A stretch of DNA of 64,000 bases from Vermamoeba vermiformis (lineage: Eukaryota): positions 1 to 64,000 of the forward strand of contig JBEWZL010000119.1 in the NCBI GenBank assembly GCA_045837725.1, in the 5' to 3' direction. Both the position numbers and the translations under genes were made by a program. Below are positions 2,656 through 13,437 of this stretch, one piece after another (position 1 is the stretch's first letter; each line of letters opens with the position of its first letter). Below the pieces are notes generated by a model. It saw only the letters and a list, made by a program, of their open reading frames with translations. It was not told the origin of the DNA and did no database searches.

Positions 2656-5114
2656 TTAAAAATAAACAAATTCGACTTTGCTGTTCATACCACAAGGGTT
2701 ACCAGTACGACCTGATATAATAATAACGTTAATAATTTGATTTGATCGCGTGCCAACTCCAATTATTCCTAGAATTGCAAATTCTTAATTAATGACTTAC
2801 GAATGCGCATGTAACCGCCTTCTCCCCACCAGTTGCCCCATGAGTTACGAATAATCCAGTAGTCCTTGCCGGTCGAATATTCGGTGCCATAGCCAACAAT
2901 AGTAATAATGTGATTTAACGAACCACCGCAGTCACTACCCGGTTCGTAAACACCGCCTTTGTAGGCTATGAAGCTGTTGCTGGCAAGAATTCCAGCAGTG
3001 GCAACGCCTTGGTTGACCCAGTAGATAAGGTTCGGGTCAGTTGTCCTGCCTTTGTCGGTGATCAGCACGGTTCCCGCGAGCGCACCAAGGCCAGAAGATC
3101 CTCTTCGGCAAGAACCTTTAGCGTTTTGATAAGGATAATCCGAGTCATAAGCCAAACCTCCGTTCGACCTGGCGAAGGCCCATGCATTTTTCATGTCACC
3201 ACCTGATAATTTGAAATGATATTAGTAACTTTTCTTATTAATATCTTCAAGCTCATAGCAATGCATTGTATTATTACCCATCTATTTTGTAAGATCCGAT
3301 GAAATTTCTAATCATTACGTACCGCTGCAGCTGTAACCATCGGAGCAATCAAGAACTTGTTGCGGTGATAAGACTGGAGGTGGTTTTTGGTTTTTGATGG
3401 CCCAGTTAGTCTCAATACTAGTTGTTGTTGCAAAAGCCCAGCAAGATCCGCAACTGTTCTGGTACTTCACCGGTGACGAATAACCTCGATCGGTCCACGA
3501 GAACTTGTTATCTTGAGGCACTGATACTGGTGGGTTCACTGGAGGTGGTTCAGGAATCGGAATGGGAGTGGATGCGACTGGAGCGGCAACAGGGGTCGGC
3601 GCTACTGGCACAGGGGTCGGCGCTACTGGCACAGGCATTGGCGTTGGAATTGGCGTAGGCGCAGGAATAGGTGGATTGTCATCGATGCATTGTTGAACAA
3701 ACTTGTAAATGTTGTTGCGCCATCCACCACCGCACATCTGATCGCCGTTTCCAGCACAAGGGACGTTGCAGTCACTTTCGGAGGCTTGACCGTACGCACC
3801 GAACGAACTGCCGCAGAAACATTGCGTGGCGAACTGAAGACCTGCAACAGCAAAGCCTTGTTGATTGCACGTTTGCGTGCACAACTCAACGGTCATGTCG
3901 TTAGAGATGTAGACTGATCCTTGCAGATCTCGATTGGCATCGTCGACGAAACAGCCCTGGTATTGCGCCACCATGACACAACTGCTCGCGATGAACTTGG
4001 GGTCATCTTCTCGAGGCTTAAGGCTGTACACTGAATTGCGCCACCAAGCACCGCATTGTTGATACGCGTTACCATAGCACGGCATGTAACACTCGGAATC
4101 GGAAGCAGTTCCGAATTGACCGTAACTGTTCGAACAGAAGCACTGATTGCCTGCTTGAAGGGCTGCGTACGTGTAGCCACCGTTGCCGCAAGCAGTAGTG
4201 CACATATCGACCGTCATGGCCCAGTGCGAGAAGTACATGTTGGATAAGTCACGCAGATAAGAGTCGATGAAGCATCCGACGTATTCAGTAGCAGGTGGTG
4301 CAGATGCGCCAAGGCATGCGCCAGAAGTGCACTATAATAAAAAATGAAGTTCAGATCCGATTCAGGATGCGGTCGGTAACTCTCGAACTAAAGAGATACG
4401 TACACCAGTGTCGCAAGGAGCTCCGCAAGTAACCATCTGACATCCATCGGATACACGACCACAAGTAACGTTGCCGCATGGATTAAGTTGTGGGACGCAA
4501 GTGCTGTTGTGGGGCTTGACTCCTCTGAAGTTGCCACGAGGAGCCCAAGTGCAGTGCCAGTATTCACCAAGAGTAGGGCAGATGGCCAAAGCGCATCCTA
4601 CTCGGTTGCTACAGATTAAAATAACCGTTAGAACAGAATTCAAGTTGCGCGTCCGATTTAAACGTTGACTTACGTGGACCACCAAACCATTTGAGTATAG
4701 TTCGATGCTTTGTATGCGTTGTTGTCATCACCACGGTAGTTTACGTACTCAGCTTCCCAAGCCGTGAGCACCTAAAAGGATTTACAAATTAATTTAAGTA
4801 TATTATTTTAATTTTAAACTTACTTGTTGATAGTTAACCGGCTTATTCGCTCCAGCAATGTAATACGTCTGTCCTCGAACGCCTCTTAATGAAGGGTCCA
4901 AGCCAGCTTCGCATTGACTAACCCAGTTCAAAGACTCTTGTTCCAATTTGTCGTCCCAAGTAATAGCCTTCATATTAGCAGGTGGGGGAGTTACTCGAGC
5001 ACGGATAGCCTTGATGTAATCCAATACATTAGATTTATCGCTATCGGTAAGTTGGTTGGCACTCTCCGCAATTGCCGCGAAAAGAATTACGCTCAGAATT
5101 AACAAAACACGCAT
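2656..5114 (-). CDS. Secreted multidomain protein: signal peptide - CAP/SCP domain - Cys-rich linker - 2x WSC - Pro-rich linker - papain (C1A) catalytic domain; no I29 propeptide
   Basis: Spliced exons give MRVLLILSVILFAAIAESA; CAP motifs ANMKAITWDDKLE, NYTQMVW, RVGCA, CTWAPRGN; WSC motifs YVGCFID..MTVDMC..QCFCSN..C..PC.GN..QQCG (twice); papain QNSCGSCWAF, LNHIITIVGYG, YWIIRNSWG..WGEGGY; last exon RTGNPCGMNSKVEFVYF*. Confidence 0.85.
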
Positions 5115-10384: not shown

Positions 10385-12113
10385 TTACAGGTGTTCATTT
10401 GGAAATGAGTCCCCAAATATGCCATCAAAGCTGAAAGAATCGAAGATATCGGTGCCAGTCGACGAAGCAAGTTCTTGAATGTATCGTTCAAACAGTGCAT
10501 CTGTCGTGGGCTCAATGCAGTTATTGTACTCTCCTCGCCGCAGCGTGTCAAGCTCTTCTTGTAAAAACATTTCTTCGCGCAAGAACATCTCATCGTTGTT
10601 GTCAATTGGGGCCATATAGTCCATGCTATCAACAGTGGGCACTTCTTTTGGCACGTTGTTGGCCTTGCTCACACTGTCTTGAGGAACGTATGCAGTGCGT
10701 GACTCGGTTGGGTTACTGCGTAATGAGACACCGTGGAATGGAGCCAACACAACAGTGCCTGCTGGCTGCGCTGGGGTTCCTGGCCGCGAAGGAAGATCAG
10801 TGCACGGTGTCGAGTGACTGCTAACGCTCAACATCATGTCGTCTGATTCCACTCCTGCCGAGTCATTGGCAGTGCTTGGTGTGAGGACCACGGAGCACGA
10901 GTCATCGATCGATGGACTTCTGTCAGAGTCGTGAATAGACAGCTGCAGAGCCAAGTGCGTGATGCTCTCACTGCTGTCTGTCCTCTTCATTGTGCCGCTG
11001 CGGAATGTCTGTTCGCCGCTGGACTCGAAACTAAGTTCGCTGTTGACCGACTGGCAGCTTGATTTGCGCGACAAGGCTCGTTCGTACTCCGCGCTGCTGA
11101 CGCTCGACCTGCGCAGTTCATCACTACTATTGCTCTTGCGCACGCGAGTGATGGCACTATCTGAGTGACGTAAACTGATGCGGCCCATGTTTGCGTCTGC
11201 TTCTTGCGAGTCACTTTCGTCGTCCAAATCACCGCTGACGAGGGCTCGTGCATCCACGTGCGAAGTTTGCTCGCTTATGACAGCAAAGGTAAATTCGACT
11301 GAAGTGAGGCGTTCTTGCTTGTCTGAATATGCTTGCATTAATTTACGCAATTCAATGCATCGATTGGTCGCCAGCAAACTTACCACGGAGGAACGTTAGG
11401 ATCTTGTGGGATTTGTAGCAACCCTCGCCCAAATAACGCACATGGCCATTATTGAAAGGGTGACTAAATAACAATACTTTCTTCTGACGAGTTTGATGGT
11501 CTTTGATGGCGGCATTAATTGCAATAGCATTCAGATCACCTGAACGTAAATCCGGTTAGTACGCAACAAAAAAAGGAAAATAATGCGCCAAAATTTTATC
11601 TTACCCTCTCGCCCAATTGTCGTATATATATACGATGTATTGTTCTCCTAATTGATCACGATCAGCAAGAGGCGAGACGATCGTTACAAGTTCCGAATAA
11701 CTTACTTGGAAACCATCTCGGAAATAATAAAATGACTTCGATTTCTTACTATGAGCAAATAAGAAAATAAAGGGATAGCACGAAGCGATCGATATTCCAC
11801 CTCGTTGGGAGCCTGTAAACCAAAAAAACGGTTAGGTATTACGAACAATCGCGGTCTAAGTTGTATATAATACCTCCGTAGTGCTCATGTATATGTTGAC
11901 GTAGGTACACTTGACCGACGACAAAAGGAATCGTTCCATCCATTCCTAAAAAAATCAGTTGGTACAAAATCCGCATTCGGACCGGAAGATGAAATTAATA
12001 AACAAATGCAACTTACCTTCGCTAAAACTGGACCTTCTTTTTTTCTTGGGCTTTGAATTTTCTTTTTCGGCCCGTTTGCGTTTATTCGCCGGACTCGGCG
12101 GATTAGCATACAT
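10385..12113 (-). CDS. Nuclear protein: bipartite NLS + ScoMcrA-type SRA domain + long Ser-rich disordered region + acidic/aromatic C-terminus
   Basis: Six exons splice in frame: MYANPPSPANKRKRAEKENSKPKKKRR..VGQVYLRQHIHEHYGGSQRGGIS..PFIFLF..YFRDGFQENNTSYIYTTIGREGD..NAAIKDH..KVLLF..VRYLGE..DKQERLTSVEFTF, matching the bacterial SRA-HNH-type SRA pattern. Confidence 0.7.
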
Positions 12114-12338
12114 TCGTCAAAAAGCTCCGCAGAATATTTTTGGTGATACGCCTCGGGCAAAAATACCTCGGGTAAGCACGCGTAATTCTAGTCGTGGTCT
12201 TCTTCGCGTACAGAAAATGGAATTGTCATTATTTTTCGGCGCGTGTTCTTTTTGGAAGTTTTTTTTTAGCGCTGCTGCGGACCCAAAAAAAGGCGGAGAA
12301 CTGCACTTACAATATTAGCAAAAACGACCACAACAAGA

Positions 12339-13437
12339 ATGGCAAAGACTACCTCGCTCACGCTTTTAAAGCTTGGTAGTTCTTTTTTGTTCTTTTTGGT
12401 GGGCTTTCTCTGGGACGGTAAGATCTGATCATCTTGTTCTCTGACTCCTCGATCTAATACTATTATTATCAGATATAATGACCGGCGTTGCAATGTATCG
12501 TGCTCGCAACTTACTTTCGAACCCAAAAGACAATCCAACCTTGCCAGACATGGGATTCGATTTACTTCCTTACGCAAATATCTGTAAGGAAAGTATGCTA
12601 CCTAGCTTGGTTCTATTAGCATTTATGTGTAAGTATCTAAATGGTGATGAATTTTCGAACGAAATAATTGATTTTAATTCGATCAATTTTTTTAGTGGCC
12701 ACACTGTTCCGCCATATGATTTTCGATAAGCAAAATGGCTTGGTGAATTTTTGTAGATTTTGTATTTTAGATGGCATTGGTAAGTGATAAACAAAATTCG
12801 TAAATATCTAATTATTATTTTGTTACAGTGATGTCTTTACGTGCCACAACTGTCGCCCTCACTTCGGTATGTTTCACGTGTGGTATTTTGTTGGTTTCTG
12901 ATTAGCTAATCAATAATTATTTACTAGCTGAACAACCCTTGGCCGCAGTGTGACTTCTGCGGAGGAGTGGATGCAGGTCACTGTCCACAATCACTCTTCG
13001 AATCTATTTGGCTCACAGTGCAAAAGTTTCCGCTGTTTGACTGCGGTGATTTGATCTTCAGCGGACACACCGTGCACTTCTTGTTGTGTGCGTTCATTTG
13101 GGACGAGGCAGGCTGGGGACTCAGACGTCGCGCACAAAAACTCGCCGCGCATGGACTGTGGCGCGCGTTGCTGTGGATCTACGTCATCTGCGGCGTGTGC
13201 ACGCTGATCATGTGCCGATTCCACTACTCGGTTGATGTCGTAGTCGGCGCGTACATTTCATTCTTAGTGTGGAAATACTACGACTATTTGCACCTCTCTG
13301 GCGATGACGGATATCTAGCGCGATTCATCACGTGGATTGAGACACCTAACAGCGCGCTGATTGACGAGATTGAGGACAAACAGCCCCTCACTTACTGGCA
13401 ACACACTCGCCGCTTCGCACAAGGCAGCAGGCAGTAA
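12339..13437 (+). CDS. Sphingomyelin/IPC synthase-like (PAP2_C) membrane enzyme
   Basis: LPDMGFDLLP, CGDLIFSGHT, RFHYSVDVVVG catalytic motifs; multiple TM segments; several short introns. Confidence 0.85.

Follow-up and report, generated by a model that had tools for sequence, protein, structure and literature searches.

The first 64,000 nucleotides (nt) of contig JBEWZL010000119.1 of Vermamoeba vermiformis (GenBank assembly GCA_045837725.1; hereafter the window) carry, at positions 10385..12113 of the minus strand, a gene that an earlier reading made from the letters alone (the sequence-only reading) had singled out as a restriction-enzyme SRA domain recast as a nuclear protein and concealed by five short introns. 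We find that this gene comprises six exons and encodes a protein of 470 residues with a domain that is almost certainly an SRA domain of the type found in the bacterial restriction enzyme ScoMcrA, standing here without a nuclease. The gene model is given below, where X1 is a public sequence run, L001 a metagenome contig carrying an ortholog, and P0076 an orthologous open reading frame (ORF).

10385..12113, minus strand: whole coding region, six exons and five introns, 470 codons plus the stop codon at 10385-10387
12114..12202, minus strand: 5' untranslated region of at least 89 nt; a spliced X1 contig extends to 12202
12017..12113, minus strand: exon 1, residues 1-32 plus 1 nt
11946..12016, minus strand: intron 1, 71 nt, GTAAGT..AG
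11874..11945, minus strand: exon 2, in which the SRA-like domain begins
11813..11873, minus strand: intron 2, 61 nt, GTATTA..AG
11706..11812, minus strand: exon 3, SQRGGIS..IFLF..YFRDGFQ
11749..11800, minus strand: optional 52-nt GT..AG intron within exon 3, from an X1 contig
11648..11705, minus strand: intron 3, 58 nt
11605..11647, minus strand: exon 4, ENNTSYIYTTIGREG, which holds the altered family motif
11540..11604, minus strand: intron 4, 65 nt, with the branch-point-like word TACTAAC
11384..11539, minus strand: exon 5, DLNAIAINAAIKDH..VRYLGEG..
11323..11383, minus strand: intron 5, 61 nt, whose acceptor yields ..FLR/DKQERL.. (slash at the joint); from the X1 joint 11322/11384, L001 and P0076
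10385..11322, minus strand: exon 6, with the last strands of the domain, a Ser-rich region, an acidic C-terminal module and the stop codon

Joining the six exons gives a single open frame of 470 residues that includes all the peptides quoted in the sequence-only reading. The start codon at 12113 is the first ATG downstream of an in-frame stop, which it directly follows, and all five introns run from GT to AG, four of them beginning with GTAAG. Transcripts bear out the splicing that had been proposed: all five joints are present in contigs of X1, a run whose kind was guessed by the tool, whose intron-free contigs are cDNA-like and match the window at 98-100% identity. The joints lie at 11322/11384, 11539/11605, 11647/11706 and 11945/12017 (with the stated cut shifts applied), the one across intron 1 being seen also in one read of run X14, while intron 2 is missing from an X1 contig as part of one 122-nt skip with nine letters inside it that correspond to window positions 11803-11811. 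The five introns of the ortholog on L001 (71, 73, 54, 55 and 57 nt) sit at matching codon positions and are 55-61% identical to those of the window, against 77% for the domain exons. Two further orthologs, P0074 and P0076, both taken from the 90%-identity cluster of the public gene call P0002, are uninterrupted ORFs of 470 residues, carried by contigs 4726 and 1463 nt long, respectively. The P0076 contig must be intron-free, since 1463 nt are too few for a coding sequence of 1413 nt plus 316 nt of introns, and P0076 aligns with the spliced window protein free of gaps at every junction. The gene has the structure listed above and is transcribed.

Introns 3 and 5 each offer several in-frame acceptors (four for intron 5), and it was outside evidence that decided among them. 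Acceptors that would make intron 5 52, 70 or 85 nt long are ruled out by the X1 joint, L001 and P0076, and one that would make intron 3 61 nt long is ruled out by the X1 joint together with the Q-E-N-N found in P0076 and L001. The raw RNA runs X13-X15 yielded only 7, 11 and 17 aligned reads, mostly 90-95% alike; they stem from a relative and say little about this gene. Public gene calls for the locus and its orthologs (P0001-P0004) hold either the last exon only (299-324 residues) or exon 5 with intron read-through (96 residues), and a word-index search with exon 5 returned the orthologous fragment P0004 as its sole match. The domain is hidden from ORF-based protein collections, save for the transcript-contig calls P0074 and P0076. 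The practical point is that ORF-based gene calls systematically miss domains split by introns in this manner.

One feature of the transcripts complicates this picture. The single X1 contig that runs across exon 3 also lacks 52 nt (11800..11749 of the minus strand), a piece that starts with GT and ends with AG preceded by a pyrimidine tract. Its removal shifts the frame, and the product would break off inside the domain, after residue 91. The 52 nt lie in no X1 contig (depth ~3), and the productive isoform thus has no direct transcript evidence from this species. The GT of the extra donor is absent at the matching place in L001, and the residues encoded by the 52 nt are nearly identical in all three orthologs. 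We read the skipped form as an unproductive minor or regulated isoform; it could be noise.

Around the domain, the spliced protein has all that the sequence-only reading had described, namely a basic bipartite stretch, a Ser-rich disordered middle and an acidic/aromatic end. The layout, with a candidate nuclear localization signal (NLS) near the N-terminus, is as follows.

12033..12083, minus strand: bipartite basic stretch resembling an NLS, KRKR-x8-KKKRR, residues 11-27, also kept in P0076 and L001
11264..11945, minus strand: ScoMcrA-type SRA domain, residues ~36-178, exons 2-6, as assigned with near certainty from profile, phmmer and model
10613..11263, minus strand: Ser-rich region, residues 179-395, predicted to be disordered (predicted local distance difference test, pLDDT, below 50 on ortholog P0076)
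10388..10612, minus strand: acidic/hydrophobic C-terminal module, residues 396-470, with the end motif DIFDSFSFDGIF, conserved among orthologs

A classical bipartite NLS has two basic clusters some 10-12 residues apart, and this pattern is present at residues 11-27, where KR-x10-KKKRR can be read within KRKRAEKENSKPKKKRR. Residues 178-395 (~218 residues) are 21% Ser. The last 80 residues have a net charge of -15 and include 27 bulky hydrophobic residues, the terminal DIFDSFSFDGIFGDSF is present in the spliced protein, and two helices (401-419 and 431-446) are predicted with low confidence in the C-terminal module.

Comparison of the three orthologs shows how unevenly these parts have been held. 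The SRA domain is 87-90% identical, the C-terminal module 80-81%, the basic N-terminus 72-81% and the middle region, the least conserved, 60-79%. Between the window and L001, the proportion of nonsynonymous differences (pN) is 0.066 in the domain, 0.15 in the C-terminal module, 0.13 in the basic N-terminus and 0.22 in the middle region, with synonymous sites saturated (the synonymous counterpart, pS, being 0.80-0.84). The domain is thus under strong purifying selection and is the part of the protein held most tightly. It bears on whether the locus might be a bacterial contaminant, a dead relic or otherwise unproductive, for which one could cite the frame-shifting 52-nt skip in the sole X1 contig across exon 3 and the fact that gene callers miss the domain. 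Because the domain is the most constrained part, with its pN of 0.066 beside saturated synonymous sites, a relic is argued against; so it is by the five spliceosomal introns at conserved positions, the eukaryotic neighbours, the full-length uninterrupted ORFs of the orthologs and the lack of conservation of the alternative donor in L001. We regard such an origin of the signal as nearly excluded.

Taken singly, the exons are too short and gave no useful match to Pfam or to the PDB. A tblastn search of plasmids with exon 5 returned two weak leads, an unannotated Azospirillum ORF and a Thermus 'HNH endonuclease', with E-values of 3-4 of their own; the other two of its four matches (Selenomonas and Rhodovulum) were due to chance, as was the only plasmid match of exon 3, which lies under an MBL-fold gene. 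The Azospirillum brasilense lead is an HNH endonuclease of 294 residues (P0006), and the spliced protein aligns with its N-terminal half at 63.9 bits and 34% identity over 109 residues, unbroken across exons 2-5. A search with the N-terminal domain of the Azospirillum protein gave 65 matches, all of which carry the precomputed label PF26348, a family whose name we take to be 'ScoMcrA-like SRA domain'; 53 of them are also labelled HNH (PF01844), and several are named '5-methylcytosine-specific restriction enzyme A' by their sources. A profile built from 36 bacterial N-terminal domains scored 76.9 bits (E 1.4e-21, Z=20000) over residues 40-161 of the spliced protein. An exhaustive phmmer search of 1.84 billion representatives, with the ortholog P0076 as query, brought up 438 proteins at E<=1e-3, 41 of them at E<=1e-10, and all of these matches, orthologous fragments apart, fall on residues ~36-178, with identities of up to ~40%. 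Among the 81 top matches, Pfam detected HNH in 30, HNH_2 in 4 and NUDIX, EVE, AAA_5, NOV_C or Mrr_cat in a few, domain combinations that belong to prokaryotic modification-dependent systems.

The link to ScoMcrA itself was drawn through profiles, since P0076 alone matches nothing in the PDB by phmmer at E<=1. The bacterial profile found ScoMcrA residues 264-556 (5zmm) at E 1.4e-24, the second ScoMcrA entry (5zmn) at E 1.9e-8 and TagI at E 1.7e-5, and it matched EcoKMcrA through the HNH domain of that enzyme only. With a profile of 30 mostly single-domain sequences, including P0076, P0074 and P0081 (a relative described below), the match narrowed to ScoMcrA residues 264-391 at E 2-4e-7 (3.6e-7 for 5zmm and 2.3e-7 for 5zmn), with a weak match to SUVH5 (E 0.13). 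The excerpted text of the ScoMcrA structure report assigns residues 91-260 to the sulfur-binding domain (SBD) and places the SRA domain in the stretch that separates the SBD from the HNH domain (PMC6224610).

Could the protein instead be a diverged, vertically inherited SRA protein of the canonical UHRF1/SUVH kind? The weak match of the profile to SUVH5 (E 0.13) would be in keeping with this, but the canonical eukaryotic SAD_SRA model (PF02182) does not match P0076 at E<=10 (weak matches below the cut-off occur in 3 of the 81 scanned relatives), and the sequence relatives, down to E 2e-15, are of the HNH-fused prokaryotic type. Moreover, no Pfam family passes for RING, PHD, Tudor, SET or any other partner domain in P0076 or in the last exon of the window gene. 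In the bacterial relatives, local Pfam and NCBIfam name no N-terminal domain, apart from DUF3427 below the cut-off (E 0.077 in the Thermus protein and E 0.00095 in P0093). Profile match, phmmer search, alignment with ScoMcrA 264-391, predicted SRA fold (below) and lack of a PF02182 match together uphold the proposal of a ScoMcrA-like rather than a UHRF1/SUVH-like SRA, an assignment of which we are almost certain; a canonical origin is nearly excluded.

An AlphaFold2 model of P0076, built on an alignment (A3) made up almost wholly of bacterial family members, has pLDDT values of 85-96 over residues 35-177 and below 50 for nearly all else. The structure search suggested by the sequence-only reading recovers the SRA fold: in Foldseek, ScoMcrA is the top match (E 9e-7), ahead of AspBHI, MspJI, LpnPI, SUVH5/6, TagI, KRYPTONITE, SauUSI, AbaSI and UHRF1. 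With VIA-align, the model gives Z-scores of 11.6 with AspBHI, 11.5 with LpnPI and 11.4 with ScoMcrA (root-mean-square deviation 3.2 A over 132 aligned residues), then 10.9 with SUVH5, 9.3 with TagI and ~9 with UHRF1; the top 46 entries are all SRA-domain proteins, after which Z falls to 6. The modelled fold is that of an SRA (PUA-like) domain. Prokaryotic and eukaryotic SRA structures lie within 1-2.5 Z of each other when compared with the model, and this common fold (Z 10.9 for SUVH5, ~9 for UHRF1) is what one would also expect of a canonical SRA protein; the subfamily assignment rests on sequence, as structure does not separate the two kinds. Of the three outcomes that the sequence-only reading had named as refuting it (no SRA/PUA-like fold, grouping with canonical eukaryotic SRA proteins, splice junctions lacking RNA support), none occurred in the tests made here.

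The loss of the nuclease, likewise part of the earlier proposal, holds both for the protein and for its surroundings. Pfam detects no HNH domain in the last exon or in P0076, and an HNH profile run against all six frames of the window gave only negative domain scores, leaving no remnant. Because it has no HNH domain, the protein is not a member of the SRA-HNH class of type IV restriction endonucleases. Compared with ScoMcrA, the Streptomyces coelicolor SBD-SRA-HNH type IV enzyme (5ZMM/5ZMN), the window protein has a domain of the same family, length and order of secondary structure, at a pairwise similarity below phmmer detection; it lacks the head domain, the SBD and the HNH nuclease and has instead an NLS-like stretch, a disordered linker, an acidic tail, introns and a T-I-G-R loop. 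The bacterial and archaeal SRA-HNH endonucleases (P0006 and the loci L004-L083), as well as TagI (6GHS), have N-terminal domains that are at most 42% identical to that of the window protein. The blocks held in common with the SRA-HNH enzymes are Y..R..H..GG..GGI, IFLF, D-G, Y-T, GD, N-A-I..H, LF and R..I.F. Those endonucleases are 270-300 residues long with a C-terminal HNH domain and occur in many prokaryotic phyla, whereas the window protein is nuclease-free.

In animals and plants, the SRA domain is the classic base-flipping reader of 5-methylcytosine (5mC), with relatives in bacterial restriction enzymes. UHRF1/UHRF2 and SUVH/KRYPTONITE (PF02182) have the fold in common with the window protein (Z ~9-11). 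They flip the modified cytosine into a Tyr/Asp/Tyr pocket, a mode that is likely shared by analogy, and they are nuclear readers without nuclease that carry an effector part, as would be predicted for the window protein too. Their RING, PHD, Tudor and SET partners are absent from the window protein, whose nearest relatives are prokaryotic restriction enzymes and which PF02182 does not match.

We therefore turned to the residues that would form such a pocket. The G-Y-x-D and Y-T-G-E-G blocks of the family align with their SUVH5 counterparts in a profile alignment, and the excerpted text of the TagI study describes a Tyr/Asp/Tyr pocket in TagI and UHRF1 that is the counterpart of these family positions (PMC6212794). 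The window protein reads Y86-F87-R88-D89 and Y100-T101-T102-I103-G104-R105, placing F87, D89, Y100 and T101 at the pocket positions: the first aromatic wall is Phe and not Tyr, and the aspartate and the second Tyr-Thr are retained. The near-invariant motifs of the family are G-Y-x-D, Y-T/F-G-E-G-Q-x-G-D and G-N-x-A-I..H. Nine positions that are invariant over 38 aligned sequences are all kept (Y46, G57, G62, D89, G104, G107, N115, H121 and F131), as are near-invariant ones including Y100, D108 and A117. Six further near-invariant positions are altered in all three orthologs: G86Y, Y87F, G102T, E103I, Q105R and G114V/I. The change of YTGEG to YTTIG noticed in the sequence-only reading is thus real and fixed in all three orthologs, the loop G-E-(G)-Q having become T-I-(G)-R, and neighbouring residues of pocket type are kept. 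From the residues, the pattern fits a pocket that is still working with a remodelled rim, and the T-I-G-R loop may have altered the base or the sequence context that is read.

What the bacterial prototype does with its SRA domain is relevant here. According to the excerpted text of two studies, ScoMcrA restricts DNA containing 5mC or 5-hydroxymethylcytosine (5hmC), with cuts that cluster near the methylated sites (PMC7461809), and in the SBD-SRA/DNA complex of ScoMcrA the SRA domain mediated dimerization without contacting DNA; the authors of that structure also state that the NKR finger and thumb loops, which in canonical SAD/SRA proteins occupy the space vacated by the flipped base, are absent from ScoMcrA-SRA (PMC6224610). 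A domain that no longer reads a modification and serves the window protein as a plain DNA-binding or dimerization module of a nuclear scaffold or regulator would resemble the latter arrangement, and the replacement of six near-invariant positions, including G-E-(G)-Q beside the pocket tyrosine, would also be explained. Such a module would not call for the retention of the nine invariant positions, with D89, G104, G107, N115 and H121 around the predicted pocket, nor for the pocket character preserved by F87, Y100 and T101, in what is the part of the protein under strongest constraint. We judge it rather unlikely.

The same loop raises the question of which base would be read. Other PUA-like domains, such as EVE, YTH and ASCH, are readers of modified RNA bases or of DNA marks other than modified cytosine, such as N6-methyladenine, and the T-I-G-R that replaces G-E-G-Q beside the pocket could shift specificity toward targets of this kind; EVE co-occurs with the domain in 3 of the 81 scanned proteins. 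Structurally, however, the closest matches are without exception SRA domains that bind DNA, and D89 is kept. In the excerpted account of the TagI authors, this conserved aspartate picks out the Watson-Crick edge of cytosine, and purines would clash (PMC6212794). A reader of RNA or of a non-cytosine mark is quite improbable to our minds.

Taken together, these features would be accommodated by a nuclear reader of modified cytosine that has no nuclease and recruits other proteins through its acidic module. The NLS-like stretch would take the protein into the nucleus, where the SRA domain would flip and bind a modified cytosine, either 5mC or 5hmC by analogy with the bacterial relatives, in a pocket formed by F87, D89, Y100 and T101. 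No cutting would follow; instead, the acidic C-terminal module may draw in partner proteins and so act on transcription or chromatin. Ordered from the most to the least secure, the inferred steps are DNA binding, flipping of a modified cytosine, nuclear localization and C-terminal recruitment. As a whole, we hold the chance that this chain is correct to be about even.

Several points weigh against it. The mode of reading is unsettled even for the bacterial prototype. The modelled fold is not independent of homology, as its alignment consists mostly of the bacterial family. To these come the lack of a PDB match for P0076 alone, the six altered positions and the 52-nt skip in the only X1 contig across exon 3. 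The C-terminal tail finds no match in Pfam or, for its last 86 residues, in the ESM Atlas, and no tail relatives were detected outside the orthologs.

We asked how widely the domain occurs. A pattern scan of prokaryotes with a bacterial alignment (A7), at one genome per species, confirmed at least 366 relatives. The 80 loci kept come from Proteobacteria, Acidobacteriota, Actinobacteria, Firmicutes, Chloroflexi, Planctomycetes, Bacteroidota, Cyanobacteria and one archaeon. The P0076 domain matches 79 of these 80 at 31-42% identity, with top scorers from unrelated phyla and the one archaeon. With a best identity of 42% among the 80 kept loci, no donor lineage can be named.

Among the 148 matches listed for the phmmer search are three further proteins of eukaryotic type that have the same domain without HNH, at 26-32% identity to that of the window protein. 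P0081 (EP00761_P009344, 221 residues) comes from the EukProt transcriptome of Pharyngomonas kirbyi, P0096 (KAL6079700.1, 536 residues) from a 556-kb contig of Balamuthia mandrillaris, and P0111 (251 residues) from three contigs of ~1 kb of a metatranscriptome-like source. Pfam detects no HNH in the Balamuthia protein, although its record is titled 'HNHc domain-containing protein'. P0081 and P0096 have basic clusters just ahead of the domain, and a K-rich stretch occupies this place in P0111. The short proteins P0081 and P0111 have no tail and, unlike the window protein, retain G-E-(G/E)-Q; together with the window clade they have one or more extra residues in the loop before the pocket tyrosine (F-Q-E-N-N in the window protein and P0111) and a longer loop after the IFLF strand. 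The Balamuthia protein has an analogous layout of basic N-terminus, domain, S-rich region and acidic-hydrophobic tail, although the two tails show no sequence similarity (best E 6). A further match, P0144 (1200 residues), aligns with P0076 in 19 separate stretches, and its hits to unrelated Pfam families all stay below threshold; the protein is probably repetitive or of low complexity.

A maximum-likelihood tree was computed from 89 domain sequences over 138 columns (LG+G4, unrooted), comprising two subtrees of interest and 12 Azospirillum-type rows and leaving out the orthologous fragments, P0132, P0144 and matches that cover fewer than 95 profile positions. The window clade groups with P0111 and P0081 (ultrafast bootstrap 93, SH-aLRT 86). 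The stem of the window clade measures 1.2 changes per site, a length that makes long-branch attraction possible. The Balamuthia protein is placed elsewhere with weak support, and a tree in which all six eukaryotic-type rows are forced together is not rejected (approximately unbiased, AU, test p 0.48; lnL difference 2.9). These data are compatible both with a single acquisition that then spread and with several separate ones. Horizontal acquisition, as the sequence-only reading had it, fits a domain found in many bacterial phyla and patchily in eukaryotes; the part that falls short is the source, as no donor emerges and the trees are unrooted. What the window protein represents is a small eukaryotic family and not a lone domestication.

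This distribution is also where a different role has to be considered, that of a nuclease-free sensor of foreign modified DNA, for example from viruses or endosymbionts, retained from a restriction enzyme and acting in defence or signalling and not on the host epigenome. In excerpts of two studies, bacterial relatives are described as defending against modified phage DNA (PMC6212794, PMC7461809), and the HNH-less relatives sit in the free-living amoeboid protists Balamuthia and Pharyngomonas within a patchy eukaryotic distribution. One scan of viral contigs with four eukaryotic-type sequences produced 75 pattern matches, none of which was confirmed as a viral relative, and the window contains no defence-gene neighbourhood. 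We think such a sensor unlikely. Wider still is the conjecture, unlikely in our estimation, of a small undescribed eukaryotic family (the window lineage, Heterolobosea, Amoebozoa and perhaps others) of nuclear sensors of methylated or hydroxymethylated, possibly foreign (such as viral), DNA, in which the modified-base sensor of a bacterial type IV restriction enzyme was retained, signalling or recruiting tails took the place of the nuclease, and the response is a change in transcription or chromatin rather than a cut. SRA would then have been recruited into eukaryotic epigenetics or immunity a second time, independently of UHRF1/SUVH.

Both SRA readers in eukaryotes and SRA-nuclease fusions in bacteria are already well known. 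In the open-access literature, we found no description of eukaryotic members of the ScoMcrA-type SRA subfamily, only papers on bacterial enzymes and general reviews; what is apparently new is thus a ScoMcrA-type SRA in eukaryotic nuclear genes, nuclease-free, with an NLS-like stretch and an acidic tail, in several distant eukaryotes. Should the proposed reader indeed bind a modified base, it would add a new type to the DNA-modification readers of eukaryotes, and this in lineages about whose canonical readers little is known. A defence sensor would then also have been reused without its effector. The domain is short (~145 residues) and well folded in the model, and should make an easy target in vitro.

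The surroundings of the gene are those of eukaryotic nuclear DNA, and the gene lies among ordinary genes. ORFs in the window match Rpa2 (RNA polymerase I), DOCK-C2, TFIIS_M with SPOC, LIM, PAS, two DEAD-box helicases, PAP2_C, and WSC with papain; GC content is 40-59%, and Rfam finds no family in the window. The window holds no paralog of the SRA gene. Short introns, one with the TACTAAC word, and a WSC domain would by themselves point to a fungus or a protist related to fungi. The PAP2_C gene (plus strand; ORF 12928-13434, with its first exons likely from ~12340) is divergent from the SRA gene at a distance of ~230 nt, and the two may share a promoter region at 12114-12340.

Further observations concern annotation of the bacterial relatives and one neighbouring frame. 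On the Thermus thermophilus plasmid pHC11 (L002, positions 1300-2079), an annotated HNH protein of 198 residues starts in the middle of an SRA-type domain, and the frame with the family motifs can be followed upstream of that start, in the direction of a transposase gene whose end lies at 1436, which suggests an SRA-HNH gene shortened by an insertion sequence. On the Azospirillum brasilense plasmid NZ_CP059450.1 (L003, positions 1285-2169), a complete SRA-HNH gene of 294 residues lies where no feature is listed, in a 2-Mb record that has a single feature in the gene table of the plasmid collection. Finally, at 3318-4331 on the minus strand of the window, one frame links a pair of WSC domains with the beginning of a papain-family (Peptidase_C1) domain, an unusual pairing.

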